From IMG/VR virus record IMGVR_UViG_3300032093_014924: a stretch of 64,000 bases of DNA. The stretch is one strand, 5' to 3'. Source of the DNA: a virus (lineage: Duplodnaviria > Heunggongvirae > Uroviricota > Caudoviricetes). Within the stretch, counting starts at the first letter, position 1. Every line of letters starts with the position of its first letter. The notes beneath the pieces are model-generated. The model saw only the letters and a list, made by a program, of their open reading frames with translations, was not told the origin of the DNA and made no database searches. Shown here in pieces: positions 535-63,898 of this stretch. The translations under genes were made by a program, and so were the position numbers.

Positions 535-556
535 AATACAAATATACTAATAAAAT
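535..556 (-). promoter_or_regulatory. conserved upstream motif instance (TTAGTATATTTGTATT-ATG)
   Basis: Reverse complement of aatacaaatatactaataaaat directly 5' of the ATG at 532-534. Confidence 0.55.
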
Positions 557-557
557 C

Positions 558-836
558 CTAAAAATTACTGTTATGTGGTAAAATTATTTTAAAATTAAGT
601 AAAATAATTAATAACCCTGTCATAAACGATATAACATCTAAAATAGTTATATCATCAAAAATTTTCATATATAAAAAAAATAATCTGTTTTTAACACTTA
701 ATGGTAGTAAATTTGTAAATATCTTTAATACCTCTGATATTATATATGATAAAAATAATATTATAAAAAGATTAAAGTAAAACGATAACATTATAAAACA
801 TAAATTGATATGTATTGTGCTAACTTGTATCCACAA
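558..836 (-). CDS. hypothetical small membrane protein
   Basis: Hydrophobic 92-aa ORF on the dominant strand. Confidence 0.3.
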   Translation of the reverse strand: MWIQVSTIHINLCFIMLSFYFNLFIILFLSYIISEVLKIFTNLLPLSVKNRLFFLYMKIFDDITILDVISFMTGLLIILLNFKIILPHNSNF

Positions 837-1114
837 AAAGCACCTAATGTGGCTGAACCAGGTAAAACAATAAGTTTACCAAACATTGTTTCATATTTAT
901 TTCTATTAACAATATATGATATAAACATATAATATACAAAAAAATTTATGAATACCGCTAAATCATTGTTTTTGCTAATAAAAACAACTATCGAATTACC
1001 AAAAAACCCCCAAAGAAAATTAATAAGAGTTTCCTTAATTAATTCTATTGGTGATGTTATGGCATCAAATAACTTTATTTTATTTGTTAATATCTTTCTA
1101 CCCTTTTCTTTCAA
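791..1114 (-). CDS. hypothetical membrane protein
   Basis: 107-aa ORF with hydrophobic segments on the dominant strand. Confidence 0.35.
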   Translation of the reverse strand: MKEKGRKILTNKIKLFDAITSPIELIKETLINFLWGFFGNSIVVFISKNNDLAVFINFFVYYMFISYIVNRNKYETMFGKLIVLPGSATLGAFCGYKLAQYISIYVL

Positions 1115-1632
1115 CTTAAAATAACATTTATATTAAAATCTTTTATATTACCATTGATAATGTTTTCTTTCCCCCAAGCCTCAAACTTAGGAATGTGTTC
1201 AAGCCTGTCATCCCACATCTCAACATACTCAACATTTTCGTATTTCTTAATTAACTTATCCAAAATACTTAATTTAAATTTATCTGTACTACCACCATCA
1301 TTATAGTAATATTCATCAAAATGTAAATCATGTTTATCCAGAATCTTTTCAACATCACCAGACAACTTTTTAATCCTACCAGTCAGCAACACTACCAATA
1401 TTTTATCATTACCATAGTTCTCTTTGTAATCATCCACGACTTTTTTGTTAACATCAATATCAAATATTTCATCGTCAAGTGATTCTTTTCGACCCCACCA
1501 ACCACTATGTGGCCAATCTTTACCAGTTTTGTTTTTATACTCAATTTTACCATCTTCAGGTAATGGAGTATACGCAATGGTTTGGTCAAAATCAAAAACA
1601 GCAATCTTTTTTATATTTTCTACTTTCTTCAT
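1111..1632 (-). CDS. HAD-superfamily hydrolase (phosphatase/nucleotidase-like)
   Basis: N-terminal VFDFDQTIAY = HAD motif I DxDxT. ATGA start overlaps the downstream gene. Confidence 0.5.
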   Translation of the reverse strand: MKKVENIKKIAVFDFDQTIAYTPLPEDGKIEYKNKTGKDWPHSGWWGRKESLDDEIFDIDVNKKVVDDYKENYGNDKILVVLLTGRIKKLSGDVEKILDKHDLHFDEYYYNDGGSTDKFKLSILDKLIKKYENVEYVEMWDDRLEHIPKFEAWGKENIINGNIKDFNINVILS

Positions 1633-1684
1633 TTTTTTTATCTAAATTTAAGCTTATGTACACAAAAGTGTACATTTTCTTTTA

Positions 1685-6429: not shown

Positions 6430-6488
6430 ATTTTTTTAGTTACTTAATGCAAAGATACATAATATTTGCAAGCAAAACAAGTTTTTTT

Positions 6489-6698
6489 TTAATTTTGAAT
6501 AAGTTTTACTTTTTTATTCTTTAAATTAATTAATAATGAAACATATAGGTCATTATCTTTGTATAAGTCATTAAATAAATTAATATTCAATAAAGATTCG
6601 TTTATTGAATCAATAGTCTCACATTTGTCTATCTTATCTATCAAGATATTATATCTATTCAAAATATCTTTAGGCTTTTCGTCAAACATTCTTTTCAT
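6489..6698 (-). CDS. hypothetical protein
   Basis: 69-aa ORF on the dominant strand. Confidence 0.3.
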   Translation of the reverse strand: MKRMFDEKPKDILNRYNILIDKIDKCETIDSINESLLNINLFNDLYKDNDLYVSLLINLKNKKVKLIQN

Positions 6699-6933
6699 TT
6701 AATTTATTCAAATGAAAAATAGATGCCTTAATCAAATCATCTTTATCGTGATAACTATTATCATCAGCCAATTTAATTAACATACATAGTGTTTCACAAA
6801 CGCATGTTATGTCGTCCAAAATAATTTTTTTAGCTTCTTCTTTAGTTTCTGGTTGTTTGAAATCATCTGGTTTACCTATTTTTACAGGTATATCCCTTTC
6901 AGTGTCAATATCAATTATAAGTGTGTTTTTCAT
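6682..6933 (-). CDS. hypothetical protein
   Basis: 83-aa ORF. Promoter-motif variant GTAACAAATGTACTAAA directly upstream. Confidence 0.4.
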   Translation of the reverse strand: MKNTLIIDIDTERDIPVKIGKPDDFKQPETKEEAKKIILDDITCVCETLCMLIKLADDNSYHDKDDLIKASIFHLNKLNEKNV

Positions 6934-7033
6934 GTAACAAATGTACTAAATATATATAACAAAAAAAAGAAAAAACTATAAAAAATTATATTATTATTGA
7001 TATTTCAATAAAAAAAATATTATTTATTTTTAT

Positions 7034-8798: not shown

Positions 8799-9187
8799 AT
8801 TCTTATATTTTTAAAAAAGTTAATATTATATAAAAACAAATATACTAAAAAAAACATTATGCTCAAAATATACATAAACATTATTGTTATCCAATAATCA
8901 CCAGTTAACATATTAATTAAACTAACAACTATGTCATAACCAAAAGGATTAAAAAATAAAGCTAATGTTAACAACAAATTACCTAATTTGTTACCAATTT
9001 TTTTAAATGAAAAATAAGATAATCCAAACAATAGGGCCGACATAACGTATAATATACCCATTGTATGCCAATAATCTTTCGTTAATGTCATTAACTTGTA
9101 AACAACTATGTCGAACCCTAAAGGATTTAAAAAAGTTGATATACCTAAACATATAGTACCCATCTTTTTTTTCTCTATTACCATCAC
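8795..9187 (-). CDS. membrane protein with internal duplication (holin-like candidate)
   Basis: Two homologous halves (NPLGFDIVVYKLMTLTKDYW and NPFGYDIVVSLINMLTGDYW), each hydrophobic. 130 aa. Confidence 0.4.
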   Translation of the reverse strand: MMVIEKKKMGTICLGISTFLNPLGFDIVVYKLMTLTKDYWHTMGILYVMSALLFGLSYFSFKKIGNKLGNLLLTLALFFNPFGYDIVVSLINMLTGDYWITIMFMYILSIMFFLVYLFLYNINFFKNIRI

Positions 9188-9281: not shown

Positions 9282-9545
9282 TTATAGCTTTTTGCCCAAA
9301 TTAATAATTAATTCTTCTTCATCAGTTGATAATCTATGTTTGTTTTCAGATAATTTTAACAAAGCATTATAATAATCGCTATTTTCATACAAAGTAAGCT
9401 TTGACGTTAATACGCCATCTTTAATTATAACTGATTCATCTACATAACCATCTTCTTTTAGACATTTTAACAAATAATCGTAATCACGACTGTTCATTGC
9501 TGATAAAAAATCATCAATATCAATTTCAATTTCAACTGTTCTCAT
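9282..9545 (-). CDS. hypothetical protein
   Basis: 87-aa ORF on the dominant strand. Confidence 0.35.
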   Translation of the reverse strand: MRTVEIEIDIDDFLSAMNSRDYDYLLKCLKEDGYVDESVIIKDGVLTSKLTLYENSDYYNALLKLSENKHRLSTDEEELIINLGKKL

Positions 9546-10098
9546 ATTTTTCTTCTAATCTATTTAATTCTTCTCTTAATATTTCTTTGCTACTACCAGA
9601 ACTATATTTTGTTTCTGGGTCTAATTCTTTTATTCTATCAGCCAAATCTTTTCTTAAACCTTTATTATAAAATTCTGATTCTATCGCATTTGCTAAAAAC
9701 CAAGATTGTTTATCACCAGTTATTGATATTCTTAAATCATACCATTCCCATTTTGTCTTATAATCATAAATCATAAAACCTTTTGTTAATTTTCTATGTA
9801 AATTATATAACGTAAAGTTACGAACCCTTACAATAGAATTATCGTTACCAAATAAATGTAATAATCTAAGAAACCATCTAGGACACCATTTTGGCCTAGC
9901 CTTGTAATCCATAAAAATGACCAAAGGTTCCAATGCCTTAAACAACTCGTCTTTTTCATTCCAAGGTACAGAACCTAAATAAGAATATTTAGCATGAAAT
10001 GTTTTAGGGAAAAAAACGTTAATAATATGTAATATAGATATATCAATTGTATGAATCATACCTTTTTTTCGCCCTTTAAATAAAATTATGTCTTTCAT
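9532..10098 (-). CDS. hypothetical protein
   Basis: 188-aa ORF with the promoter motif abutting the ATG. Confidence 0.45.
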   Translation of the reverse strand: MKDIILFKGRKKGMIHTIDISILHIINVFFPKTFHAKYSYLGSVPWNEKDELFKALEPLVIFMDYKARPKWCPRWFLRLLHLFGNDNSIVRVRNFTLYNLHRKLTKGFMIYDYKTKWEWYDLRISITGDKQSWFLANAIESEFYNKGLRKDLADRIKELDPETKYSSGSSKEILREELNRLEEKYENS

Positions 10099-10120
10099 AT
10101 TACAAATATACTATTAAAAT
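10099..10120 (-). promoter_or_regulatory. conserved upstream motif instance
   Basis: attacaaatatactattaaaat abutting the ATG of 9532-10098. Confidence 0.55.
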
Positions 10121-10164
10121 AATAACCAAACAAAAAAATATAATGTTATTTAACTTATTTAAAT

Positions 10165-15683: not shown

Positions 15684-15718
15684 AATTATAGTATTTTGAT
15701 TACTACAAATATACTACA

Positions 15719-16114
15719 TTATTTTGACATTTCCAAATTTTTATTATAAAATTTAAGAAAAGAATCAATTGCTTGTACTACTGCTTCTTTTTTAGTTTTA
15801 CCGACTGCTTCTGTTATATAATTTTCATCAGGTGTGTCACATATTTCTACACAATTAGAAAATATATCTATTTCATATCCTAATTTCTCAATAGCTTCAA
15901 CTACTTCCATTATCCAATTCCAATCTGAATGGAATTTTAGTTCTTTTTCAAATCTTTGAGCTTCTATTACATTGTGGTACATAACACCATGAAACATTTT
16001 TGAACCGATGTTTTTAGCATTACCAAAACCCCACGCTTCCGCATCTTCAGAATATATTGCATCTAAAAACTCAGCACACAGCTTATTATATTGTAAGATT
16101 TCTTCTTGTGTCAT
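15719..16114 (-). CDS. hypothetical protein
   Basis: 131-aa ORF. Confidence 0.4.
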   Translation of the reverse strand: MTQEEILQYNKLCAEFLDAIYSEDAEAWGFGNAKNIGSKMFHGVMYHNVIEAQRFEKELKFHSDWNWIMEVVEAIEKLGYEIDIFSNCVEICDTPDENYITEAVGKTKKEAVVQAIDSFLKFYNKNLEMSK

Positions 16115-19173: not shown

Positions 19174-19384
19174 AATATTCTACTGGTTCAAAAACATAAA
19201 AAACATTTCCATCTGAATCAACATCTCTTATTATTTGCATTTTATGTGCCATTTCAATCATCTCTTGCCTTTGTATTTTATACGCTTGTTCAATCAAATC
19301 CATAGAATCCGTTTTCAAAGCGTTAGAAAATCTTTTAGGTAAGTTTTCTAATAAAAAATCTAAACCTGTTTGTTTATTTTTCAT
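19139..19384 (-). CDS. hypothetical protein
   Basis: 81-aa ORF with the promoter motif abutting the ATG. Confidence 0.4.
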   Translation of the reverse strand: MKNKQTGLDFLLENLPKRFSNALKTDSMDLIEQAYKIQRQEMIEMAHKMQIIRDVDSDGNVFYVFEPVEYYEQTYGKENNS

Positions 19385-19405
19385 AATACAAAGATACTAA
19401 TAAAA
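19385..19405 (-). promoter_or_regulatory. conserved upstream motif instance
   Basis: aatacaaagatactaataaaa abutting the ATG of 19139-19384. Confidence 0.55.
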
Positions 19406-19432
19406 AATTATAAAACAAAATTTATTTTTTAG

Positions 19433-19961: not shown

Positions 19962-20702
19962 TTAAGCTGAAACTTCTTTTTTATTATTTAATAATTGATT
20001 AAATTCTTTTTGTCCATTAATTACTTTTTTAATAATCTCTTCAAATTTAATCTTACTAACGTTAATATTAAATTCAATATCATTACCTATACCAATCATA
20101 GTGGCAAAACAATCATGCTTAAATGTTAATGGGTTGAAATTAAAATAAATACCTTCGTTTTTAAAGTAATTTGATTGATATCCAATTTGGAAACTTCTAT
20201 ATAATGTTGTTTCATCACCACTAGTTGATGTAATAACACGATTAACTAATCCGTTATTTACCATTATCGGCATTAATTTAAAAAGCTTTTTATTAAATTT
20301 TGTTACCTCTTCAAAATAATTATTAGCGTAATTCAAATAAAAATATTCATCAGTTATTATATTTAAAACAACATGGAAATATTTTAATTCATTTCTAATT
20401 AATTCAATACATGGGTATTCTGGTTTTGAATAACCCATAGTTGAATAAGCTATAGATTTATCTATTTCAAATGTAACATTTTCTACTTTAACATTATCTA
20501 ATAATTCACCACCATTTTGGTAATCTAATTCGGTTCCTTCTGGGAAATCTTTTTCTTTTGGGTTGTGGCCAAAAGATATATCTATAGACCCTTCAATATT
20601 GTTATTCCGAAAATGAACCATATCCAAAACAGAATCTGTTTGTATTGCATATACATTAAAATTCTTAGATAGTAATGCTTTTCTTATTTCTCCGTATTTC
20701 AT
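19962..20702 (-). CDS. hypothetical protein
   Basis: 246-aa ORF with the promoter motif abutting the ATG. Confidence 0.45.
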   Translation of the reverse strand: MKYGEIRKALLSKNFNVYAIQTDSVLDMVHFRNNNIEGSIDISFGHNPKEKDFPEGTELDYQNGGELLDNVKVENVTFEIDKSIAYSTMGYSKPEYPCIELIRNELKYFHVVLNIITDEYFYLNYANNYFEEVTKFNKKLFKLMPIMVNNGLVNRVITSTSGDETTLYRSFQIGYQSNYFKNEGIYFNFNPLTFKHDCFATMIGIGNDIEFNINVSKIKFEEIIKKVINGQKEFNQLLNNKKEVSA

Positions 20703-20724
20703 ATTACAAAGATACTAATAATTT
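20703..20724 (-). promoter_or_regulatory. conserved upstream motif instance
   Basis: attacaaagatactaataattt abutting the ATG of 19962-20702. Confidence 0.55.
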
Positions 20725-20764
20725 TTAAAAAAACAAAAAAAAACTATAAATAACAAGAAAAAAT

Positions 20765-23801: not shown

Positions 23802-23947
23802 ATTTCTTTTTTTTTTACAAAGTTACTAAAAAGTTTTTTAATGTGCAAATATTTTTTTTATTATAGGATTAAAATTAAGATATATTTATTTCTTCTATCC
23901 AAAAATTTTCATTTGGAAAATCTCTTTTATATTGAATGCGTAAAACC

Positions 23948-25299
23948 CATAAGTCTTTAGCTTATGTGATATAAGCACTACAAAAATACAAATAAATAAA
24001 CAAATAAACAAATAAATATTTTTTTTTCTTAAAATATGTCTTTTTTAATATTATCATATATTTATCATATATAGAGTTAATCTGATAAATAATGTTAAAA
24101 TCATATAAATATAAACTTAAACCAACTAATGAACAAATTGTTTTATTGAATAAACACTTTGGTTCAATTAGGTTTATATATAATTATTTTTTAAATGAAA
24201 GAAAACATGAATATGAAACAAACAAAAACTCAATTAATTATTATGATAACGCTAAATCATTAACTGAATTAAAAAAACAAGATAATTATTCATGGTTAAA
24301 AGAAATTAATTCACAATCATTACAGGATTCATTAAAAAATTTAGAAACAGCTTATAAGAATTTTTTTAGATTCAAAAAAGGTTTTCCTAAATTTAAATCT
24401 AAACACGATAAAAATAGTTTTACAATACCTCAATTTGTTAAATTAAATAAAAATGAATTATCTATACCTAAATTTAAAGACCCTATTAAAGTCATTATAG
24501 ATAGAAAATTTAATGGTTTAATTAAACAATGTACTATTTCAAAAACACCAACAAATGAATATTTTGTATCTATTTTGGTTGAAACTGAACATAATAAATT
24601 ACCAAAAACTAACAAATCTGTTGGTATTGATTTAGGTATTAAAGAGTTTGTTATAACATCTGATGGTTATAAATATAAAAATAATAGATACACAAAAACA
24701 TACGCTAAAAAACTTAAAGAACATCAACAACATTTAAGCAGAAAAATAAAAGGTAGTAACAGATATAATAAACAAAAATTAAAAGTGGCCACTATTCATA
24801 AGAAGATAACCAATTCTAGAATAGATAATCTACATAAAATATCCACAGATTTAATTAAAAAATATGATTTAATTGTATTGGAAGATTTAAATATTAAGGG
24901 TATGGTTAAAAATCATAAATTATCTAAACATATTTTAGATGTTTCATGGGGAAAATTTGTAACAATGTTACGTTATAAATCTGAATGGAATGATAAAAAA
25001 ATAGTTAACATAGATAGGTTTTTTCCTAGTAGTAAAACATGTAATTGTTGTGGTTATATTAATCAAAATTTAAAATTAAATATTAGAGAATGGGTTTGCC
25101 CATCATGTAATACTAAATTAGATAGAGATTTAAACGCAAGCATAAATATCCTTAAAGAAGGAAATAAGATATTATCGTCAGGAACTGACGATTACAGACG
25201 TGGAGATGAAATAAGACCAACATCCGTTGGCACAATCGGTGAAACGTCTAAAATTCTTAACAATATTGTTAAGAAACCCATTGGTCTTTAGCCAATGGG
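23948..25299 (+). mobile_element. IS200/IS605-family (IS1341-like) TnpB-only insertion element
   Basis: The only large plus-strand gene in its neighbourhood. Flanked by two related hairpins with an identical TCTTTAG loop: CATAAG-TCTTTAG-CTTATG at 23948-23966 and CCCATTGG-TCTTTAG-CCAATGGG at 25277-25299. Confidence 0.6.
24092..25291 (+). CDS. tnpB: TnpB (OrfB_IS605) RNA-guided endonuclease-family transposase accessory protein
   Basis: N-terminal YKYKLKPTNEQ, central RuvC-like region, and C-terminal CNCCGY...CPSCNTKLDRDLNASINI zinc ribbon + RuvC-III signature. Confidence 0.85.
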   Translation: MLKSYKYKLKPTNEQIVLLNKHFGSIRFIYNYFLNERKHEYETNKNSINYYDNAKSLTELKKQDNYSWLKEINSQSLQDSLKNLETAYKNFFRFKKGFPKFKSKHDKNSFTIPQFVKLNKNELSIPKFKDPIKVIIDRKFNGLIKQCTISKTPTNEYFVSILVETEHNKLPKTNKSVGIDLGIKEFVITSDGYKYKNNRYTKTYAKKLKEHQQHLSRKIKGSNRYNKQKLKVATIHKKITNSRIDNLHKISTDLIKKYDLIVLEDLNIKGMVKNHKLSKHILDVSWGKFVTMLRYKSEWNDKKIVNIDRFFPSSKTCNCCGYINQNLKLNIREWVCPSCNTKLDRDLNASINILKEGNKILSSGTDDYRRGDEIRPTSVGTIGETSKILNNIVKKPIGL

Positions 25300-26660: not shown

Positions 26661-26966
26661 TTAATTATCTTTAAAGTTTTGTTCTTCGCCATCTAAATTA
26701 TTAAAATATTTTAGTATCTCTGAAATTCTTATGTTTTTTTCTTCAAGGTCATCCATAATCCTTTTTGCAGCATACATTGATGAAATTAACCCATATTCTT
26801 CGACATCTTTTTCATCTAACATAACACCAGCGATAAATATTAATAAACTACCAGCTTTATTAACACAATAATCACCAGTTTCATGGCTTTCTTTACATAA
26901 AGAAGTTCCCATTTCAAATAATTTTGAGCTTATTTCGGCTCTACGTTCTAACATATTATTTTCCAT
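26661..26966 (-). CDS. hypothetical protein
   Basis: 101-aa ORF with the promoter motif abutting the ATG. Confidence 0.4.
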   Translation of the reverse strand: MENNMLERRAEISSKLFEMGTSLCKESHETGDYCVNKAGSLLIFIAGVMLDEKDVEEYGLISSMYAAKRIMDDLEEKNIRISEILKYFNNLDGEEQNFKDN

Positions 26967-26988
26967 ACTACAAAGGTACTAATAATTT
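26967..26988 (-). promoter_or_regulatory. conserved upstream motif instance
   Basis: actacaaaggtactaataattt abutting the ATG of 26661-26966. Confidence 0.5.
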
Positions 26989-27004
26989 TATTAATAATAC
27001 AAAA

Positions 27005-27948: not shown

Positions 27949-28030
27949 CGAATGTTCTCAGGGACATCAGGTAGTTAACCTTAATAACAGATGGTTGCAA
28001 CCACTATTAAATGAGTTTGAGAACATTCAT
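27949..28030 (-). ncRNA. structured 5' leader / small RNA candidate downstream of a promoter motif and upstream of the kinase gene
   Basis: Promoter motif at 28031-28052. Long-range stem GAATGTTCTC (27950-27959) with GAGAACATTC (28019-28028). Perfect palindrome GGTTGCAACC at 27993-28002. 7-codon uORF MNVLKLI. Confidence 0.3.
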
Positions 28031-28052
28031 TATTACAAATATACTATTAATA
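28031..28052 (-). promoter_or_regulatory. conserved upstream motif instance driving a structured leader
   Basis: tattacaaatatactattaata. Followed by a uORF/hairpin instead of a long gene. Confidence 0.5.
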
Positions 28053-28077
28053 ATATAATTAAACAAAAAAATATTTT

Positions 28078-32402: not shown

Positions 32403-32588
32403 TTAAAATTGTTTTAAATAAAATTTGATTGTTTTGTATAAGGCTATCATTAATACTCCGCTAGCCAATGCGGATAAAAGAACTAAATAATCTGAACTTG
32501 AAGAAAAACCTTCTAAAATTAAAGTCCAAATCATAAACACAACTACCAATAAAATTGGTATGGATGACATTAAATATATTTTTTTCAT
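32403..32588 (-). CDS. small membrane protein
   Basis: 61 aa with two hydrophobic helices. Promoter motif abuts the ATG. Confidence 0.4.
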   Translation of the reverse strand: MKKIYLMSSIPILLVVVFMIWTLILEGFSSSSDYLVLLSALASGVLMIALYKTIKFYLKQF

Positions 32589-32610
32589 AATACAAAGTTA
32601 CTAATTATTT
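32589..32610 (-). promoter_or_regulatory. conserved upstream motif instance
   Basis: aatacaaagttactaattattt abutting the ATG of 32403-32588. Confidence 0.5.
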
Positions 32611-32634
32611 TGTTAACTAACAATTTTTTTTTTT

Positions 32635-34197: not shown

Positions 34198-34203
34198 TAA
34201 ATT

Positions 34204-34225
34204 ATAATACAAAGATACTATTAAT
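34204..34225 (-). promoter_or_regulatory. conserved upstream motif instance upstream of tRNA-Met
   Basis: ataatacaaagatactattaat lies 7-12 nt from the tRNA 5' end. Confidence 0.5.
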
Positions 34226-34247
34226 ATTATTAATAAACAAATATTAT

Positions 34248-35772: not shown

Positions 35773-35834
35773 AACTATTTAATTTTTTTATAATACAAAT
35801 ATACTACATTAAACAAAAGAAAACAAATTTTTTT

Positions 35835-39519: not shown

Positions 39520-40407
39520 TTAACAACCAAAAAAATCTTTTAAATCTTCATTTTTTTTAAGGTCTCTTATCGCAAACTCTATTATTTTTTTAATTCTTAT
39601 AGTTGTCATATTATACTCTTCTGACATTTGTTTAATTGTTAATTGTTTATAGTCATACAAACCATAATAATGACAAATAATAACTCTACTTATAGGGTTT
39701 AAAGAATATATTACCTTTTTTAATACTTCGTTTGATTCTTTTTCTTCACTATCTACTTCAAAATCATTGTGTTTGAATAAATAATCATTTTCTTCAGTTA
39801 TTAATGATTTAGTAACAACACTAGATTTAATAGCCATCAATACACTATTTTTTATTCTATCTGTACCAATATCAGAATTATTAATAACATATTCGTAATC
39901 AAGTTCATGACCACATTCTTTCTCCATTTTTGCTTTCAAATTATTTATTATTTTAATTTTAGGCATAATGTTTGAAGATATGTTAGCTACATATAAATTT
40001 TCATTTAAAAACAATAAAATTCTTTTTCTTATATGCCAAATAGCATATGAAATAAATTTATTATCTGAATCTGTTTTGAATTGTTCAATAGCTTCACTTA
40101 AGCCAATATTGCCCTCACATATCAATTCTTCAACACCAATATCACCACTGGTTATTTTTTTAGCATATGTTCTTGCAACAGAAACAACAAATAAAAGATT
40201 ATGATTTATTATTTTATCTTTTATTTTTTTTCTGTCTAATTCATCAGTTGTCTCAGACAACTTTATGAATAGTTCTTTTTCTTCTTCTTTGGTTAAAGGT
40301 TTAAGCTTTTCAATTTGACTGTAATAAGCTTTTAAAGATTCTTTAGATAATGTGTTTACAAAAAAATCATCATTACCAAGTCTTTTTTTACCGAAATCTG
40401 TTATCAT
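39520..40407 (-). CDS. Sigma-70 family RNA polymerase sigma factor
   Basis: Region 2 FISYAIWHIRKRI and region 4 LTIKQMSEEYNMTTIRIKKIIEFAIRDLKK. Confidence 0.7.
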   Translation of the reverse strand: MITDFGKKRLGNDDFFVNTLSKESLKAYYSQIEKLKPLTKEEEKELFIKLSETTDELDRKKIKDKIINHNLLFVVSVARTYAKKITSGDIGVEELICEGNIGLSEAIEQFKTDSDNKFISYAIWHIRKRILLFLNENLYVANISSNIMPKIKIINNLKAKMEKECGHELDYEYVINNSDIGTDRIKNSVLMAIKSSVVTKSLITEENDYLFKHNDFEVDSEEKESNEVLKKVIYSLNPISRVIICHYYGLYDYKQLTIKQMSEEYNMTTIRIKKIIEFAIRDLKKNEDLKDFFGC

Positions 40408-40470
40408 ATACTTTATTTATTTAATACAAAGATATTAAAAAATACGATACGAAACAAATTTTTTTTTAGA

Positions 40471-41843: not shown

Positions 41844-41974
41844 ATTTTATTATTTACAGGATAGCGTTAGTTGACTTTATCTATTTTGAATTTGAATGTA
41901 ACTTTTGCTGAATCTATCCTTTAAAATAATTTATATTACAAATTTACTAACTTTTTAACATTAAAACAATTTTT

Positions 41975-42050: not shown

Positions 42051-42203
42051 ATTTACAGAATCGGTTTTTCGGGTTGAATTTAAAAGATTCATCGATAATT
42101 TAATTTTGCTGAAATAATTCTTCAAAATAACTAAAATAATTTCAAAGTGGGTTTCTATAATTTTGCATAATTATTCTTTTTTGTTTTGCTGTAACCACTT
42201 TTT

Positions 42204-42224
42204 ATAATACAAATATACTAACCT
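42204..42224 (-). promoter_or_regulatory. conserved upstream motif instance driving the tRNA-cluster leader
   Basis: ataatacaaatatactaacc, with no ATG-initiated gene downstream. About 360-nt leader, then tRNA-Leu(UAA). Confidence 0.5.
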
Positions 42225-42257
42225 TTACCTCATGAAAACAAATTTATTTTCTGTTTT

Positions 42258-42500
42258 TTATGTAATTATTTGATTATTAACCAATTTAAAATCTACTTTA
42301 GGTTTAAGTTCTGTTAAAACAACTATTATTTGTTGTTTTTCTATTTTTGAAATATCATAAATTACATTAACCACTTCGTAATATATATCATTAAAGAAAA
42401 GTAATTCATTTTTTTTAGGAATAACATTCATTTGGATATCATTTTTTAAAATCTTCCAATTTACATCTATAAACCTTATATTATTTTTTTTCTTAAACAT
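42258..42500 (-). CDS. hypothetical protein
   Basis: 80-aa ORF. Confidence 0.35.
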   Translation of the reverse strand: MFKKKNNIRFIDVNWKILKNDIQMNVIPKKNELLFFNDIYYEVVNVIYDISKIEKQQIIVVLTELKPKVDFKLVNNQIIT

Positions 42501-42625
42501 AAGTCAAATTTACTACATTTTTTTAATTAATGAACGATATTTATTAATAAATAACATTTAGCTAAATAATTTAAATCATGAAAAATCAAGTAAGAGAATG
42601 TGGTTGTAAAAAATAACCATGTATT

Positions 42626-43330: not shown

Positions 43331-43350
43331 CCATTGTTTTAATAATTATT
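43331..43350 (-). promoter_or_regulatory. conserved upstream motif instance upstream of tmRNA
   Basis: ttattacaaatatactaaaa about 14 nt 5' of the GGGG start of ssrA. Confidence 0.5.
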
Positions 43351-43399
43351 ACAAATATACTAAAAGATACAAATAAAAACAAATATTATTTAATAAATA

Positions 43400-46086: not shown

Positions 46087-46123
46087 AATTACTTTTTTTT
46101 TAACTTGTTATTTATAATACAAA

Positions 46124-46146
46124 TATACTAATAATAATCGAACTAA
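46124..46146 (-). promoter_or_regulatory. conserved upstream motif instance
   Basis: ataatacaaatatactaataata upstream of 45646-46086. Confidence 0.5.
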
Positions 46147-46157
46147 ACAAAAAAATG

Positions 46158-46897: not shown

Positions 46898-46985
46898 ATT
46901 TATATTTTTTACAAAGGTAAAACAAATTAATGACTAAACCTAACAAATGATAAACAACATTAAAACGATTGTTTATCATCGGACG

Positions 46986-48737: not shown

Positions 48738-48792
48738 AGCTTTATTTACTTTTTAACAAAAATACTATATATTTATGATATAAACAAACAAA

Positions 48793-49915: not shown

Positions 49916-49918
49916 ATC

Positions 49919-51349: not shown

Positions 51350-51420
51350 AAGTCGTTTTTAAATCTTTATACAAAGATACTACATTTTAAACCTAAAAAA
51401 CAAATTTTTTTTAAAAAAAA

Positions 51421-51645: not shown

Positions 51646-51647
51646 GA

Positions 51648-52399: not shown

Positions 52400-52481
52400 A
52401 TGATTTATTTATTTATTTATTTAAATAAATATTTACAAATATACTAAAAAAAATATAATTTATATATAGTTAACAAAGATT

Positions 52482-52808: not shown

Positions 52809-52815
52809 AATAAAA

Positions 52816-53430: not shown

Positions 53431-53437
53431 ATTAAAT

Positions 53438-53644: not shown

Positions 53645-53664
53645 GATATAAAAATATGATAGTA

Positions 53665-53886: not shown

Positions 53887-54079
53887 GTTTTAACATATTT
53901 GTTAATTTGTTTAAATTATGTTCTAACGTGTTTATTTTGCTTAATTGTTCTTTAATTTTACTTATTTTTTCATTAATGTCAATATTTGAATTCATTAACC
54001 TCTCTAATTCGTCTTCTGACTTCAATATATCAGAAGTTAATTCCATAGTTAAGATTTGAAATACCCTATTATAATCCAT
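53852..54079 (-). CDS. hypothetical coiled-coil protein with poly-Asn tail
   Basis: 75 aa. Promoter motif abuts the ATG. Confidence 0.4.
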   Translation of the reverse strand: MDYNRVFQILTMELTSDILKSEDELERLMNSNIDINEKISKIKEQLSKINTLEHNLNKLTNMLKRDENNNNNNNN

Positions 54080-54100
54080 ATAACAAATATACTAACTTTA
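54080..54100 (-). promoter_or_regulatory. conserved upstream motif instance
   Basis: taacaaatatactaactttaa abutting the ATG of 53852-54079. Confidence 0.5.
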
Positions 54101-54121
54101 ATTCAGTATATCAATACTTTT

Positions 54122-54538
54122 TTAATCTTTTTTTTCTAATATCTTATATATTTCAATTAAGACATCTAATTCAGATTTAGTTTTTGGTTTAACATAATCA
54201 AAAACATCTAACCAAAACTTTAAACTTTTTTTATCGGTATAATCACTATCTTTATTAGTGTTATTATAAAAAGTTTCATTTAGAAACTGAAAAAAATATT
54301 CCTTTGATTTTTCATTTGTTAAATGAAAACCTTCTTTTAAAAAATTATCTACGTTTTTATCCCAACACCAATCATAATGTTTTTTCTGTTGTTTTTTATT
54401 TGTTATATCATCACCTAAATAAGTGTCATATATTAACATTAATAATGATTGTACAAAATCACTATATAATTCACATCTTTCAAATTTTATATTATTTGCT
54501 ATATATGTGACATTTATGTTATTATTGTTTGTTCCCAT
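54122..54538 (-). CDS. hypothetical protein
   Basis: 138-aa ORF. Confidence 0.4.
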   Translation of the reverse strand: MGTNNNNINVTYIANNIKFERCELYSDFVQSLLMLIYDTYLGDDITNKKQQKKHYDWCWDKNVDNFLKEGFHLTNEKSKEYFFQFLNETFYNNTNKDSDYTDKKSLKFWLDVFDYVKPKTKSELDVLIEIYKILEKKD

Positions 54539-54592
54539 TATTAATATATAATTTAAATAAAATTATTTATTAATAAATAGTTAAAACAAACA

Positions 54593-54622
54593 AAAAACCC
54601 CTACATTTGTAGGGGTTTTTTT
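54593..54622. terminator. intrinsic terminator CCCCTACAtttgTAGGGGTTTTTTT
   Basis: 7-bp G+C stem flanked by an A-run and a T-run (bidirectional), 3' of ORF 54625-56736. Confidence 0.6.
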
Positions 54623-54624
54623 AA

Positions 54625-56736: not shown

Positions 56737-56775
56737 ACTTTTTTTATTAATAAATATTGTATAATTTAAATAAAG

Positions 56776-59217: not shown

Positions 59218-59219
59218 CT

Positions 59220-59471
59220 TTAATTTGTTTTATTGTCTAAATTATTAATCCAAGTTGCTCTTTTTATCCATAATGTTTTATATAATTGTGTTAAAACATT
59301 TTTTGTAATGTCAACAATTTTATCCTCAAGCTCTTTATCATTTTTGTAACGGTCTTTAATTATTTTCTCTATTTTTGATTCAAATGACTTTGAGTCAATA
59401 AAGTTTTTTAGCTCTTTTGTTACATCTGATTTTTTAAGCTCTTCTTTTATTAATATTTTATTTCTATCCAT
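59220..59471 (-). CDS. hypothetical protein
   Basis: 83-aa ORF. Confidence 0.35.
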   Translation of the reverse strand: MDRNKILIKEELKKSDVTKELKNFIDSKSFESKIEKIIKDRYKNDKELEDKIVDITKNVLTQLYKTLWIKRATWINNLDNKTN

Positions 59472-59512
59472 TGTTAAAATAACTTAACAATAAATATAAT
59501 TTATAAATAAAA

Positions 59513-59540
59513 AAACCCATATAAATGGGTTTATTTTTTT
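59513..59540. terminator. hairpin AAACCCATataaATGGGTTT + T-run
   Basis: 8-bp stem followed by TATTTTTTTATTTTT. Confidence 0.5.
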
Positions 59541-60106
59541 ATTTTTATGTTATTTGTTACAGTTATTGTATCTCCTATACATTGGCTATATACAGCAGCC
59601 CTATAATGTGGTTTAAGTTTAATAAGTTTAAAGAAATACTTTTTATCCCAATCTTTATATATAAATGTTGTTAACGTATCATTAAAAGTGGTTTTATCAA
59701 AAAATATTGTATCTTTATTAATAAATCCAGAAAAACCATAACATTTTTGATTGAAATCGAAAGTTAATCTTTTTCTTAAAGTATCGACTTTAAGTGTTGT
59801 TGATTTAATCGTAGTATCTTTATAATTATAGGTTGTTTCAACAATATTTGTTACATTCTTAGTCTTAATGTTTATCTTTTCAGCAAGACTATCTAATCTA
59901 GGATATAAAGCTTTTAATTCATTTACTGTATATTCTTGTTGTCTAGATTTATCTAAAATCAAACTATTTACATTTTCTGTAAACCTTTTTCTCTCTTCTT
60001 TCTCATTAGTATATAAATTATATAAAAAATAAAGAGATGTTGACAATAACATTATCAACCCAATTAATATTATTAATATTTTATTGCCTATTGACATTGT
60101 ATTCAT
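59531..60106 (-). CDS. membrane-anchored protein
   Basis: N-terminal TM helix (ILIILIGLIMLLSTSLYFLY). 191 aa. Confidence 0.4.
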   Translation of the reverse strand: MNTMSIGNKILIILIGLIMLLSTSLYFLYNLYTNEKEERKRFTENVNSLILDKSRQQEYTVNELKALYPRLDSLAEKINIKTKNVTNIVETTYNYKDTTIKSTTLKVDTLRKRLTFDFNQKCYGFSGFINKDTIFFDKTTFNDTLTTFIYKDWDKKYFFKLIKLKPHYRAAVYSQCIGDTITVTNNIKIKK

Positions 60107-60557
60107 TTGTTAATTTTAAAGACCATTCTTTTGCCCAAACATCATAATAGCCTTTTAATTTTGTTAATATTGTATTTACTTCATTAGTTAATTCAACATT
60201 TTTCATTGTTGTTTCAATCTCACCACTAGCTAAAGACATTTTAAAGTTAATACCACTTTCACCATAGTTTTTATTTAAAAAAGACCCTTCTAATAACACA
60301 TCATTATCTTTAACATAAATTTTGAAATTAGTTATTTTAACTCTTGGGTCAATAGTGTTTTGTAGTTTGGTTAACTCTTCTTTAAATAATGGGTCACCTT
60401 CTTTTGGTGCTATAGTATCTTTTTGGTCGTCAGGTATTGGTTTCATATCTGGACCAGTTATCGGTTCTTCGACCTCATTTATTAATTTTTTATAACCACT
60501 TCTTATGACATTCATCATTTTTTTTGTCATGTCATGTTCATTTATAATTTCTTTCAT
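60081..60557 (-). CDS. hypothetical protein
   Basis: 158-aa ORF. Confidence 0.4.
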   Translation of the reverse strand: MKEIINEHDMTKKMMNVIRSGYKKLINEVEEPITGPDMKPIPDDQKDTIAPKEGDPLFKEELTKLQNTIDPRVKITNFKIYVKDNDVLLEGSFLNKNYGESGINFKMSLASGEIETTMKNVELTNEVNTILTKLKGYYDVWAKEWSLKLTNEYNVNRQ

Positions 60558-61165
60558 AGTTCTATTTTATCTTTAAATATATCAAATTTCCAATTAGGGT
60601 TTAAATCTGTAAAATGTTTTTCAATATTACTTTTATATAACACACCTTCAAAGTCATATAAGTCATCTATTTTAGTGTTATGAGCAACAACTAATTTAGG
60701 TATATTTAAGTCACTACATAATGTTCTAACTAATTTTATTGCGGATTCTAATTGTTCATCATTGTATGGTGCCCAATAAACATAATCTCTCCATTTTTTT
60801 TCCATTATACCATCAATTTTACCATAATATTTTTCATTAAACCAATTTGTGTATTCATTTTTCTTATTATCTTTTGTTAACCAACCAATATTTTCTATTA
60901 ATATAACGACAGATTTAGTGTTTTGGTCTGGATTATTAAAATATCTTGAATAATACTTTGGGTCAAAATGTTGATAAATTTTACCCTTTTTATCTATGGT
61001 AAAAGAAGCTGTTTTTTTATATTTACCATTATAACGTGTTTCCCAACCAAAAACATGTCTCATACCATCATTAAAAGTGTTACCTAAAACAATTTGTTTT
61101 TTTTCACTTTCTAATGGGACATATTTATTTACATCTAATTTATACGTTTTGTCATCTATTATCAT
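60554..61165 (-). CDS. N-acetylmuramoyl-L-alanine amidase (amidase_2/PGRP-like) candidate
   Basis: Order of motifs: GMRHVFGWET ... ASFTIDKKGKIYQHFD ... NTKSVVILIENIGW ... YNDEQLESAIKLVRTLC ... VVAHNT. This parallels T7-lysozyme-type amidases (H...YHF...NSIGIE...Q...L...HHE). Confidence 0.45.
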   Translation of the reverse strand: MIIDDKTYKLDVNKYVPLESEKKQIVLGNTFNDGMRHVFGWETRYNGKYKKTASFTIDKKGKIYQHFDPKYYSRYFNNPDQNTKSVVILIENIGWLTKDNKKNEYTNWFNEKYYGKIDGIMEKKWRDYVYWAPYNDEQLESAIKLVRTLCSDLNIPKLVVAHNTKIDDLYDFEGVLYKSNIEKHFTDLNPNWKFDIFKDKIEL

Positions 61166-62421
61166 TTATATCGTTTAAAAATAACTTTATCTTTATTACC
61201 ATCTCTAATTATTTTATTTGCGCCTATTGATTCAATCATGTTATTTCCTTTTGGCATAGGTACATTAACTGAATAACCTCTGTTTTGCTCTTTTATTTCT
61301 TTAATATCTTCTAAAGTTATTTTATTCTTTTTTGGTTGGTCTTTAACCTCTTCTTCTTTTATTTTTTCTTCATTTTTATTTTCTTCTATTTGCTCTTCTA
61401 TTTGTTCTTCTATTTGCTCTTCTATTTGTTCATTTTGTTCTACATATTCATCTTCTTCTATTTTTGTTGCATTTTCCTCTATAGTTTTTTCTACAATAGG
61501 TTCAACAATTACTTCTTTTTCATTGTTTTTTTTACTATTGATAACTTTAGTTATACTATCTAATAAATTAGCTTTATTAAATAGTTTATTAACTTTTTTT
61601 TCTTGCTTGTTTTTAGGTTCTGTATGCTCATTTCTTTCTATTTGTAATACTTTGTTAGCAATTAATATTAAAGCAACAGCCAGAGGGTCAAAAACGAAAA
61701 TAAATAGTAATATCAATATATTAACTATTTTTGACATTTCTTGATTAGTTAATTCAGATAAATATTTTAATGGACCTATTTCACCAGCTATTTCACTATT
61801 AGCATTTAGTTCCAATGCTTTAATTGTAAAAGTATTTATTGAATCAGATAAAACATTATTTTTTTTATTTAATTCATCTATCTCATTATTTAATCTCTGT
61901 ATTTCATCATTTGATGATTTAATATCATTTCTAGCGTTATTTCTACCTAAATTATTTTTAGCGTTATCTAATCTATTTTCTTGAGTTGACCTTAATGCTG
62001 ATAATTGTTCAATTCTTTTATTTTTACTTTCAATAATTTTTTGATTATCATCAACACTTTTTTCAATAATAGCTTTTTTACTATCCAAAACATTTATTTC
62101 TCCTTGATGTATTTCAAGTTTGTTAGCTGTTTTTTGATAAGCGTTTGATAAAAACCCATAAATACCTATTGAAGTTATAGCCATTAAAACTAATATACTT
62201 ATCGTTAAATAAATTTTTAATCCATTGGCTATTTTATCCCAATAATTATGTAATGCTGTTGTAGCAATAATTTTACTTATTTCTAATACACTGGCCATTA
62301 TAATAACAGCAACACTGGCACCAGCAAACAACTGACTTAATCCAAAAACAGAAAAATATGCTGCACAAGCTGCAACAACTAACGCAAAAAATAATATTAT
62401 ATAACTAAATCTAATTTTCAT
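61162..62421 (-). CDS. membrane protein with coiled-coil and EEQIEEQI repeat
   Basis: N-terminal and central TM segments, long coiled coil, (EEQI)x4 repeat. 419 aa. Confidence 0.45.
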   Translation of the reverse strand: MKIRFSYIILFFALVVAACAAYFSVFGLSQLFAGASVAVIIMASVLEISKIIATTALHNYWDKIANGLKIYLTISILVLMAITSIGIYGFLSNAYQKTANKLEIHQGEINVLDSKKAIIEKSVDDNQKIIESKNKRIEQLSALRSTQENRLDNAKNNLGRNNARNDIKSSNDEIQRLNNEIDELNKKNNVLSDSINTFTIKALELNANSEIAGEIGPLKYLSELTNQEMSKIVNILILLFIFVFDPLAVALILIANKVLQIERNEHTEPKNKQEKKVNKLFNKANLLDSITKVINSKKNNEKEVIVEPIVEKTIEENATKIEEDEYVEQNEQIEEQIEEQIEEQIEENKNEEKIKEEEVKDQPKKNKITLEDIKEIKEQNRGYSVNVPMPKGNNMIESIGANKIIRDGNKDKVIFKRYK

Positions 62422-62458
62422 AATCTTAATTATTTATAAATATATAAAACGAAAAAAA

Positions 62459-63298
62459 TTATTCATTAATTAGTGAATATAATTCACCTGAATTGTACCT
62501 TAATTTACGTAACGAACTTTCTTTTATTTGACGTATTCTTTCTTTTGTTAGGTTATATTTTTCACCAATAGCTTCTAATGTCATACTTTCAACATCTGGA
62601 TTTAAACCAAAATAAGATATGATAATGTCTTTTTCTCTTTCATCCAAAATATTAAGAATATTCACTATACCATTTTTTATATCTGAAGTTAATTCATATT
62701 TATCTTCTTCTTTTTCATCAATCCCTATCAAATCAATTAATTCATCATTGTTATCATTAACAAAATCATTTAATGATTTATTTTGATTATACACTGATAA
62801 ACCAAGATGTTCAGCCTCATTTGTTAATTCTTCATTTTCATAGTTAAAATTATCGTATTTTTTTAACTCTTTTAATATTTCTTTATTTAAATTAGATAAT
62901 CTGTTTATAACATTTGTTGGTAATCTTACCGTTCTAGCGTTTTCGTTTAGACTATTGATTATTGATTGTCTTACCCACCAAACAGCATAAGAAATGAATC
63001 TAAAACCCATTGTGTGGTCAAATTTCTTAGCTGCTTTTAATAAACCATAATTACCTTCATTTATTAAATCATTTATCGGTAAGCCTTGATTTTGATATTC
63101 TTTAGCTATTGTTACAACAAATTTTAAATTTGCTTCCACTAAACTTTTAACGGCATCTTCATCACCGTTTTTTATTCTTTCAGAAAGAATTATCTCTTCT
63201 TCTTTTGTTATTACTTTACTTTTTCTTAAATCTTTAAAATATAAATTTAAATTGTTTAAAGAATCTTTTTCATAAAAAATTTGATTATTTTTTTTCAT
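62459..63298 (-). CDS. Sigma-70 family RNA polymerase sigma factor
   Basis: Region 2 FISYAVWWVRQSIINSL, region 3, region 4 MTLEAIGEKYNLTKERIRQIKESSLRKLR. Confidence 0.75.
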   Translation of the reverse strand: MKKNNQIFYEKDSLNNLNLYFKDLRKSKVITKEEEIILSERIKNGDEDAVKSLVEANLKFVVTIAKEYQNQGLPINDLINEGNYGLLKAAKKFDHTMGFRFISYAVWWVRQSIINSLNENARTVRLPTNVINRLSNLNKEILKELKKYDNFNYENEELTNEAEHLGLSVYNQNKSLNDFVNDNNDELIDLIGIDEKEEDKYELTSDIKNGIVNILNILDEREKDIIISYFGLNPDVESMTLEAIGEKYNLTKERIRQIKESSLRKLRYNSGELYSLINE

Positions 63299-63322
63299 TA
63301 ATTACATTTATTACATATTTTG

Positions 63323-63877
63323 TTATTTTGATAATAAAGTAAGCAGTCTTTTATCTAAATCGCTTAATTTATCAACACCCTTATCTATTAATTCGTTAAA
63401 TAAAGCTTCTTTCTCATCTTTTGATAAAGATGATATAAATTCGGTTATATCTATTTTATGGTTATTAAAAATTATTTTATCATTTGTTTTATTATAACCA
63501 TTTATTTCATCACCATGTTTTATTTCATGGATTTCAGGAATGTCATTAGTATCGTTTATGTCATTAATAAAATTTTTAGACATTTCATCCAAATCAATAT
63601 CACCTAAAAAACTAAATAAACCATTTTCAACAGTTTTATCTTGTAAATTAAAAGAAGTAACATCCTCATTTAACTCAAAAATAAAATAATTATTTTTACA
63701 TGTTTTCAACAAATTTTTCATTTCTTTTGGTGTCATAATTGTTGAAAAAGTTGCAATATATAAACCAGTAGTGTATATATAATTAATTTTAACCTCACTA
63801 ATTTTATTTAGTTCTTCAAATGCAACTTCTTTATCAAACTTACCCAATAAAATCAAACAATAATTCTTAAATATCAT
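63323..63877 (-). CDS. hypothetical protein
   Basis: 184-aa ORF with the promoter motif abutting the ATG. Confidence 0.4.
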   Translation of the reverse strand: MIFKNYCLILLGKFDKEVAFEELNKISEVKINYIYTTGLYIATFSTIMTPKEMKNLLKTCKNNYFIFELNEDVTSFNLQDKTVENGLFSFLGDIDLDEMSKNFINDINDTNDIPEIHEIKHGDEINGYNKTNDKIIFNNHKIDITEFISSLSKDEKEALFNELIDKGVDKLSDLDKRLLTLLSK

Positions 63878-63898
63878 AATACAAATATACTATTTTTT
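63878..63898 (-). promoter_or_regulatory. conserved upstream motif instance
   Basis: aatacaaatatactattttt abutting the ATG of 63323-63877. Confidence 0.55.

Follow-up and report, generated by a model that had tools for sequence, protein, structure and literature searches.

The DNA analysed here, referred to below as the window, is a stretch of 64,000 nucleotides from a virus of the class Caudoviricetes (IMG/VR record IMGVR_UViG_3300032093_014924), and the subject of the analysis is a promoter element that recurs upstream of its genes and in a number of cases runs directly into the start codon. The window is AT-rich (24-30% GC) and nearly all of its genes lie on the minus strand. Their content is typical of a large phage and comprises a transfer-messenger RNA (tmRNA), tRNAs, two RNA-ligase-like genes, DnaJ, an ArdC-like anti-restriction domain, homing endonucleases, a TnpB gene and two sigma-70-family genes, a pair that a preliminary description of this DNA had correctly noticed. 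PHROG families 1745, 968 and 850 are present among the genes. A protein that is more than 90% identical to the first of the two sigma factors, and belongs to the same 90%-identity cluster, is encoded on a contig of 293.5 kb, on which basis the phage is taken to be a jumbo phage. At the DNA level, comparison with known phages yielded just one match of 68 bp, to a 735-kb megaphage, and no annotated close relative is therefore apparent at that level. A relationship with the ‘moraphages’ (PMC12619734), or with the 27% GC outgroup of phages that encode bS21 (PMC9723584), is conjecture.

A two-box element on the coding strand

The preliminary description had listed 20 positions at which a motif built around TAnnTTTG precedes a gene. 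All 20 are real sites, with the coordinates 40410, 43331 and 52421 being approximate. Seven more were added, i.e., 48767, 41949, 8847, the weak site 23991 and the weaker intergenic sites 46922, 42515 and 6460, which brings the total to about 27, all on the coding (minus) strand. With up to three mismatches allowed, the 19-mer CATAATACAAATATACTAA has 14 matches, on a single strand, against 0.39 expected. A position weight matrix (PWM) built from the window's own sites gives 24 minus-strand versus two plus-strand matches at 12 bits or more, and 22 versus none at 16 bits or more. Taken alone, the core TAHHTTTG shows a mild strand bias (53 versus 40), so that the specific element is the extended, two-box motif. 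Its sites are intergenic, on the coding strand and 5' of genes, at a density of about 0.44 two-box sites per kb compared to 0.12-0.15 per kb in the comparison sets. This corresponds to roughly one site per four genes, a frequency for which the earlier term ‘ubiquitous’ was too strong. The lone strong plus-strand PWM match (TAGTAAATTTGTA, 14.6 bits, positions 705-717) has a TG-T-rich region upstream, is antisense to small open reading frames (ORFs) at 558-1114 and may be an antisense promoter or a chance match.

The 27 sites were aligned with the G of TTTG at -5, the register published for Flavobacterium johnsoniae and Flavobacterium psychrophilum. TAHHTTTG is found in all 27, and G is absent at -10 and -9. 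Upstream, a TTG begins at -35 in 17 sites and within one nucleotide of that position in 23, as part of an extended box with the consensus TTTGTTT (-36..-30) that is itself preceded by an A-tract (-45..-37). Between the boxes, T-15, A-14 and G-13 stand out (G-13 in 25 of the 27). On the downstream side, T-4 and A-3 are conserved, and T-1 (21/27) and A+1 (24/27) occur regardless of what follows. The full consensus thus reads A-tract / TTTGTTT / N14 / TAG-TAHHTTTG-TAnT / A(+1)T. Information content is confined to -45..+2 and drops to background beyond. The promoter recognized by the Bacteroidota primary sigma factor (sigma-ABfr) consists of a -33 TTTG and a -7 TAnnTTTG element (PMC6847099, PMC7366714, PMC9723704). 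The earlier assignment of the core to the Bacteroidota -7 box was right, and since a -33 TTG, which had gone unmentioned, joins the TAHHTTTG box at the canonical distance, the element is a complete Bacteroidota primary-sigma (sigma-A) promoter. A canonical sigma-70 promoter (TTGACA-N17-TATAAT) was also considered and rejected: a generic TTGACA/TATAAT scan of positions 44001-64000 found 144 matches, compared to 146.8 +/- 12.6 in shuffled sequence, which is no enrichment.

A repeat finder independently groups the sites into families of 37-56 nt (D1, D3, D8 and D12), and one pair of sites lies within an intergenic block of 143 nt that is duplicated at 90% identity over a distance of 18 kb (28031-28173 and 46115-46257). 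The block spans two promoters and about 125 nt 5' of them, and may serve as a regulatory region common to both or encode a small RNA. Such repetition would also be expected if the element were a dispersed mobile or recombination repeat, for instance of the miniature inverted-repeat transposable element (MITE) or repetitive extragenic palindromic (REP) kind, or a signal acting at the RNA level such as a processing site or a translation enhancer. We consider this very improbable. Information ends sharply at the promoter boundaries and the sites occupy one strand only, no terminal inverted repeats or target duplications were seen around them, the two boxes with their fixed spacing match a known promoter class, and orthologous positions are kept in relatives whose flanks have diverged. 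The mobile-repeat reading, which the preliminary description had itself proposed to check against promoter-specific placement, is therefore rejected, with the single duplicated 143-nt spacer as an exception. A ribosome-binding site (RBS) or enhancer can likewise be dismissed, as the element is found 5' not only of ORFs but also of tRNA and tmRNA genes, and at a variable distance of 0-100 nt from start codons; together with the two-box architecture, this bears out the earlier view of a transcription signal.

Spacing between promoter and start codon

At ten of the 27 sites, the ATG of a real ORF occupies the predicted +1 position, with exactly four nucleotides between the G of TTTG and the ATG in each case. 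All ten are on the minus strand, and the promoter coordinates given for them cover -36..+3. From the right-hand end of the window they are the promoters of a 184-aa gene (63323-63877; promoter 63875..63913), which opens the operon with the sigma-A-like gene; of a 75-aa gene (53852-54079; 54077..54115); of an 80-aa gene (42258-42500; 42498..42536), the newly added site with the sequence TAGTAAATTTGAC; of a 61-aa gene (32403-32588; 32586..32624), followed by a Band7/SPFH gene; of a 101-aa gene (26661-26966; 26964..27002), followed by an RNA ligase gene; of genes of 246 aa (19962-20702; 20700..20738), 81 aa (19139-19384; 19382..19420), 188 aa (9532-10098; 10096..10134) and 83 aa (6682-6933; 6931..6969); and of a metallophosphoesterase gene (534 to beyond the window end; 532..570). 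The gene starts concerned are hence 63877, 54079, 42500, 32588, 26966, 20702, 19384, 10098, 6933 and 534. The probability of finding an ATG at +1 in at least ten of 27 sites by chance is 1.2e-9. A search of IMG/VR for loci related to the 184-aa product returned none.

These ATGs appear to be the true starts, because each is the first possible start codon past an in-frame stop, because position 1 of the Pfam Metallophos profile aligns to residue 1 of the gene at 534, and because the 101-aa product aligns from residue 2 with an ortholog of 44% identity in a distant relative (L127), with orthologs aligning from residues 2-3. The gene calls made independently in the relatives L001, L003 and L004 choose the same ATG as well. 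Site 28046 was tried as a further leaderless candidate and rejected, as its ATG at +2 opens only seven codons.

At twelve other sites a protein-coding gene follows at a distance, with predicted leaders of 10, 12, 15, 15, 16, 18, 18, 19, 29, 32, 34 and 100 nt, all on the minus strand. Leaders of 10-19 nt precede a 60-aa gene (start 46897; weaker promoter 46905..46943, in which TTT replaces TAG at -15..-13; 10 nt), a 423-aa RNA-ligase-like gene (22530-23801; 23811..23849; 12 nt), DnaJ (47745-48737; 48750..48788; 15 nt), the second, divergent sigma gene (39520-40407; 40420..40458, with TAA at -15..-13; 15 nt), a 141-aa gene (start 6429; weaker promoter 6443..6481, with ATG at -15..-13 and TTTGCA; 16 nt), a 476-aa DUF2828/DUF7788 gene (a Ro-like, phrog_850 RNA-binding protein; 51365..51403; 18 nt), a 45-codon ORF (start 15683; 15699..15737; 18 nt) that overlaps the start of a GIY-YIG gene (14717-15553), and an 82-aa gene (start 35772; 35789..35827; 19 nt). 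Longer leaders are predicted for a 146-aa gene (start 46086; promoter 46113..46151, within the 143-nt duplicated block; 29 nt), a NUDIX-like 177-aa gene (start 52399; 52429..52467; 32 nt), a 117-aa gene (start 8798; 8830..8868, inside the 3' end of the upstream ORF; 34 nt) and an AAA_33 kinase-like gene (27005-27931), the real gene 100 nt downstream of site 28046 (28029..28067), which is the other copy within the 143-nt repeat.

Leader lengths of protein-coding genes are consequently bimodal, being either zero (n = 10) or at least 10 nt, with lengths of 1-9 nt absent; two distinct modes of initiation would produce such a distribution. The zero class makes up 45% (10/22) of the promoters that precede a protein-coding gene. 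In F. johnsoniae and F. psychrophilum, the box occupies -12..-5, leaving a gap of 4-5 nt before the start site (PMC6847099, PMC9723704). Given this published spacing, the conserved A located five nucleotides past the G of TTTG is the predicted +1, and the ten mRNAs would be leaderless in the general sense of that term (PMC6847099). The preliminary description went further in stating that the motif directly precedes at least 20 genes, with 0-3 nt of spacer. Such abutment is seen at nine of the 20 positions it listed, plus the added site 42515, and not at the rest. In other words, the sites were rightly recognized and the extent of their fusion to ATG codons was overstated: leaderless transcripts are predicted for the ten sites that fit the published register exactly, not for about 20.

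The remaining five sites comprise three that precede RNA genes and two to which no product could be assigned, all on the minus strand. As stated earlier, the motif lies in front of tRNA-Met (34123-34197, followed by tRNA-Arg at 34040-34112; site 34220, 34203..34241; 8-nt leader) and of the tmRNA (42977-43332; site 43362, 43345..43383; 15-nt leader). A further site (41949; 41932..41970) lies about 91 nt 5' of tRNA-Leu (41757-41843) and a tRNA-like cluster. Three stretches (19433-19578, 41388-41489 and 41179-41256, minus strand) are matched as tRNAs by Rfam, over 146, 102 and 78 nt, but are not called by ARAGORN; they may be tRNA genes that contain an intron or are disrupted, and a GGTTCGAATCCTGTCCTGAC-type T-arm segment recurs four times. 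Site 42220 (42203..42241) has no downstream ORF and is followed by a segment of about 110 nt, a candidate small RNA (41990-42205, minus strand), which is kept past the promoter in the relative L250 (15745-15870). The segment carries a complementary pair (AAAGTGG...CCACTTT) and repeats of TTCAGCAAAA, which is also found 3' of promoter 41949; Rfam contains no match for it. Finally, site 23991 (23974..24012) is weak and uncertain, with TTG at -15..-13, a G at +1, the lowest PWM score (13.6) and no identified product. It lies beside the TnpB / IS605 OrfB gene (24092-25291, plus strand), which has helix-turn-helix (HTH), OrfB and Cas12f-like TNB domains and is among the few plus-strand genes that break the single-strand gene order.

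Shine-Dalgarno sequences are not enriched in front of the genes of the window: AGGA, GGAG or GAGG occurs at -20..-4 in four of 114 genes, compared to 5.7 +/- 2.5 at random positions. The sole full AAGGAGG lies 7 nt before the ATG of the GIY-YIG homing-endonuclease gene (15553-15575, minus strand), the very exception named earlier, and suggests a foreign origin or a special regulation of this gene. Regions 5' of starts are instead A-rich (A = 0.5-0.66 from -14 to -2), and these A-rich regions without Shine-Dalgarno sequence match the Bacteroidota pattern described in PMC6847099. Short or absent leaders are rare in the three host species studied. In Bacteroides thetaiotaomicron, 3.7% of the 5' untranslated regions are shorter than 10 nt (PMC7366714), in F. 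psychrophilum 5.5% of the mRNAs are leaderless (PMC9723704) and in F. johnsoniae leaders of at most 10 nt account for 13% (PMC6847099). The share of zero leaders in the window, at 37-45% of the sites, is well above this range of 3.7-13%.

The fusion of promoter and start codon is conserved in relatives. Syntenic loci were compared in L003, of which the sigma factor is 89% identical, and in L001 and L004 (both 70%). In all three, TAGTATATTTGTAttATG is kept before the gene preceding the sigma gene, with the ATG at +1 and identical spacing, while the sequence 5' of the box has diverged. The arrangement at 54079 is also kept in L003. In L001 (18100-18160) and L004 (13840-13897), the TAnnTTTG box before the 75-aa ortholog is replaced by TTGACA-N16-TATATT-N7-ATG, a classical sigma-70-like promoter in which, once more, the ATG is close to where transcription would be expected to start. 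Promoters of the NUDIX, Ro-like (476-aa), DnaJ and 146-aa genes are kept at orthologous positions in L250, with leaders of 27, 11, 12 and 24 nt, compared to 32, 18, 15 and 29 nt in the window; for the NUDIX-gene site, the ortholog in L250/L004 has a 27-nt leader. As the leaders in L250 differ while the ATG at +1 is retained elsewhere, leadered spacings drift and zero spacing is constant, even if the ATG of the L250 ortholog of the 80-aa gene (42258-42500) lies one base farther downstream. The ATG at +1 is further kept before the RNA-ligase operon of L127 despite only 44% identity of the 101-aa ortholog. In the distant relatives to which L127 belongs (L127-L136), found via their RNA ligase (51-54% identity), the PWM matches 21 times on the gene strand and never on the opposite strand, with an ATG at +1 in ten of the 21 matches (ORFs of 67-309 codons).

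Beyond these relatives, the exact 19-mer TTAGTATATTTGTATTATG is found in 82 IMG/VR contigs, several of which are near-duplicates of each other. In 76 of its 83 occurrences, the ATG opens an ORF that spans at least 40 codons or runs off the contig end (median 215 codons), and for the shorter core TATATTTGTATTATG this applies to 85 of 111 distinct contexts among the matches listed. At other, unselected promoter-like sites in the IMG/VR loci, leaders are zero in 11 of 73 cases and 10-19 nt long in 26. In a census of one GTDB genome per bacterial species, the 19-mer occurs in 38 contigs, and the ATG opens an ORF of at least 40 codons or one running off the contig end in 29. A number of 28 of the 38 are Bacteroidota, including one Ignavibacteria and one Kapaibacterium metagenome-assembled genome (MAG), which GTDB places in this phylum. 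In four non-Bacteroidota MAGs of Patescibacteria-type and other affiliation (L092, L097, L112 and L123), the 19-mer abuts the ATG of gatB (MK[ML]IPIIGLEIHVQL...), which hints at a similar fusion of promoter and ATG in candidate-phyla-radiation bacteria.

The explanation we favour, and regard as likely, is that the approximately 27 sites are strong promoters of the Bacteroidota primary-sigma class, each heading a transcription unit on the single coding strand. They would be read by the host core RNA polymerase with the host primary sigma factor and later, probably, also with the near-copy encoded by the phage. Transcription would begin at the conserved A; at ten sites this A would be the A of the ATG, yielding a leaderless mRNA translated from its 5'-terminal AUG, whereas at twelve sites the leaders of 10-100 nt, A-rich and without Shine-Dalgarno sequence, would be normal for the phylum. 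The remaining sites would drive the tRNAs, the tmRNA and the candidate small RNA. Several points weigh against this. The +1 position is derived from the register of other species, and the PWM was trained on the same sites that it tests. Coincidence is also cheap, since the consensus A(+1)T(+2) needs just a G to become an ATG, even though the ORFs are real nonetheless. In addition, seven of the ten leaderless sites are located in spacers of 23-66 nt that are filled by the promoter; as this leaves no room for a terminator, their genes are probably also present on polycistronic read-through RNA. Bacteroidota do start translation internally without Shine-Dalgarno sequence on A/U-rich upstream regions (PMC6847099), and in the hosts studied leaderless mRNAs make up only a small share (3.7-5.5%; PMC7366714, PMC9723704). 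The promoters could hence be real while the ATG-abutting genes are translated mainly from read-through transcripts, with the mRNAs that begin at the AUG being minor or untranslated. We judge this quite unlikely, as it leaves a G-N4-ATG spacing conserved to the single nucleotide and the lack of 1-9-nt leaders hard to explain, and as all ten genes start with ATG, as leaderless translation requires.

A search of the literature for leaderless mRNAs in Bacteroidota or in crAss-like phages did not find an earlier description among the papers it covered. Provided that the predicted start sites hold, the window would represent the first Bacteroidota phage system in which close to half of the promoter-proximal genes are leaderless, and it would offer a handle on 5'-terminal-AUG initiation by Bacteroidota ribosomes, which sequester their anti-Shine-Dalgarno sequence.

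Sigma factors and the TAG extension

The first sigma gene (62459..63298, minus strand; 279 aa; regions 1.2, 2 and 4) is the second gene of the operon transcribed from promoter 63892. Its product is 56-60% identical over the full length to proteins of 275-276 aa that are annotated as primary sigma factors, one of which is named RpoD/SigA of a Bacteroidota bacterium. Among 50,697 phage records, by comparison, the best sigma identity is at most 37% over most of the query length. Regions 2.3-2.4 (GFRFISYAVWW.QSII.SLN.NAR.VRLP) and 4.2 (MTLEAIG..Y.LTKERIRQIKE...RKLR) are nearly invariant between the phage and bacterial proteins. This makes the first sigma factor a xenolog of the primary sigma of Bacteroidota and shows a jumbo phage carrying a near-copy of the host housekeeping sigma factor. 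This relationship, together with the predominance of Bacteroidota among the genomes with the 19-mer (28/38), supports a Bacteroidota host, as had been proposed. The second sigma-70-family gene (39520..40407, minus strand; 295 aa) is divergent, with 29% identity to the first and different recognition helices, and its own promoter belongs to the first class and leaves a 15-nt leader.

The core of the motif is identical to the host consensus and only the TAG at -15..-13 is specific to the lineage. Its occurrence was compared with the pattern TTG-N19-21-TAHHTTTG, which is blind to these three positions. In the window, 19 of 28 two-box sites carry TAG and 75% have a G at -13; in the relatives L127-L136, TAG is found in 20 of 65 sites and G-13 in 60%. 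Among 255 sites in IMG/VR loci and 23 in Bacteroidota genome loci, on the other hand, TAG is outside the top triplets, with G-13 in 27% and 39%, respectively, and in a core-matched IMG/VR sample it occurs in three of 85 contexts among the matches listed. TAG is therefore a lineage-specific extension and not a general Bacteroidota feature, and the host sigma alone may be insufficient for the full motif, which is a further point against a purely host-read promoter set.

In addition, two positions set the phage sigma clade (P0001-P0007) apart from every bacterial homolog listed. In region 3.0, the phage proteins have PTNVIN where bacteria have PAN[VI]IN. In region 2.4, they have QSIINSL instead of QSI[IL]QSL, the N being aligned to the R of AITR in the Firmicute SigA. 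In other sigma factors, the helices of regions 2.4 and 3.0 face the -12..-15 duplex. A sequence search of the Protein Data Bank (PDB) found no structure of a Bacteroidota sigma factor, with Firmicute SigA proteins as best matches, and the residue-to-base contacts were mapped by alignment to Firmicute SigA alone. The two substitutions are a lead to the possible basis of the TAG preference.

From these data one could argue that the extended TAG motif is a private promoter for the sigma-A-like factor of the phage, which would redirect the host core polymerase and leave the host sigma a minor role. Both the restriction of TAG to this lineage and the clade-specific substitutions in helices expected to face it speak for this, yet we deem it unlikely. 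Both in the window and in three relatives, the sigma gene itself comes second behind a leaderless promoter of the TAG type, so that the host sigma must read at least this promoter, unless phage sigma is injected. Moreover, the other DNA-reading regions are nearly identical to those of the host sigma, and the exact TAG-bearing 19-mer also precedes ORFs in 28 Bacteroidota genomes. The ‘dedicated phage sigma factor’ that the preliminary description had offered as an alternative to a Bacteroidota host is thus not required, as one phage sigma is a near-copy of the host's with its own operon under the same type of promoter. All in all, that description is supported in part: promoter class, host and lack of Shine-Dalgarno sequences stand, while leaderless count, ubiquity and the need for a dedicated sigma do not. 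A joint scenario, in which the phage sigma has been retuned in regions 2.4 and 3.0 to TAG promoters and leaderless expression serves as a phage strategy, is speculative and, as a whole, improbable. If true, the retuned sigma would command a semi-private promoter set of about 0.4 sites per kb, and the AUG-fused leaderless mRNAs would be translatable during takeover by ribosomes that do without Shine-Dalgarno pairing.

A second motif, TATTTAT (often ATATTTATA), occurs 20-25 nt before the ATG of nine genes, with about 0.5 expected by chance. The gene starts are 62421, 59471, 56736, 42911, 37875, 36218, 35214, 28693 and 21545. The motif is often located 3' of a terminator-like hairpin or T-run and persists, despite diverged flanks, in the spacers of L001, L003 and L004 that are orthologous. 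It is possibly a second promoter class, and a candidate target of the divergent sigma encoded at 39520-40407.

Neighbouring features and known systems

Some further features lie between the promoters. A gene of the CCA-adding / poly(A)-polymerase family is split within 36269-39485 (minus strand): ORF 37920-39485 covers positions 1-72 of the head-domain profile and ORF 36269-37183 positions 69-126, with a GIY-YIG/NUMOD homing endonuclease (37168-37875) between the halves. The relative L250 has an intact gene of 393 aa (17828-19009). Two arrays of tandem paralogous small genes (10165-12085 and 16111-18084, minus strand) show conserved junctions, i.e., ...caatttaaaaagaaataaG-ATG and ...cttaaaacttgatat-ATG. 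A 703-aa gene contains a repeat with a 12-nt period (55240-55371).

Compared to the sigma-ABfr promoter, the sites of the window have both boxes at the same spacing with the downstream box at -12..-5, a TAHHTTTG without G at -10/-9, an A/T-rich upstream region and downstream regions that lack a Shine-Dalgarno sequence. They are far more uniform than chromosomal sigma-ABfr promoters, their -33 element is clear whereas it is barely detectable genome-wide in F. johnsoniae, and they add TAG at -15..-13 and TA at -4/-3. Unlike in the three host species, where short or absent leaders account for 3.7-13%, the ATG lies at +1 in 37-45% of the sites.

Strong Bacteroides phage promoters as such are already known. 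For instance, P_BfP1E6 is used as a strong promoter in synthetic biology (cited in bioRxiv 10.1101/2025.03.18.644028). Going by that description, to which the comparison is limited, it resembles the promoters of the window in being phage-borne, read by the Bacteroides host polymerase and stronger than native promoters; in contrast to the leaderless fusions, it is described as used with a separate ribosome-binding region. The promoter of the window forms a compact cassette of about 50 bp in which a leaderless start is optional, with a core that is common across Bacteroidota phage contigs, and could serve expression tools in Bacteroides and Flavobacterium.

Lambda cI (transcribed from P_RM) and many genes of Actinobacteria, Deinococcus and haloarchaea give rise to leaderless mRNAs, with a -10 box that lies at a fixed distance from the start codon. 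As in these genes, a downstream box precedes an obligatory AUG by a few fixed nucleotides, and the predicted +1 is the A of that codon. The differences are that the promoters of the window belong to the TAnnTTTG class, that their phylum is one in which leaderless genes are reported to be rare, and that the leaderless mRNAs are here predicted from sequence. Super-consensus early promoters are found in T4, T5 and T7 (A1), and sigma-70-family factors in jumbo phages and cyanophages. Like the early promoters, those of the window are a stronger and more uniform version of the host consensus, here in a phage that carries sigma genes of its own. Yet, unlike the divergent, phage-specific sigma factors of jumbo phages and cyanophages, the first of these is a close xenolog of the housekeeping sigma of the host.

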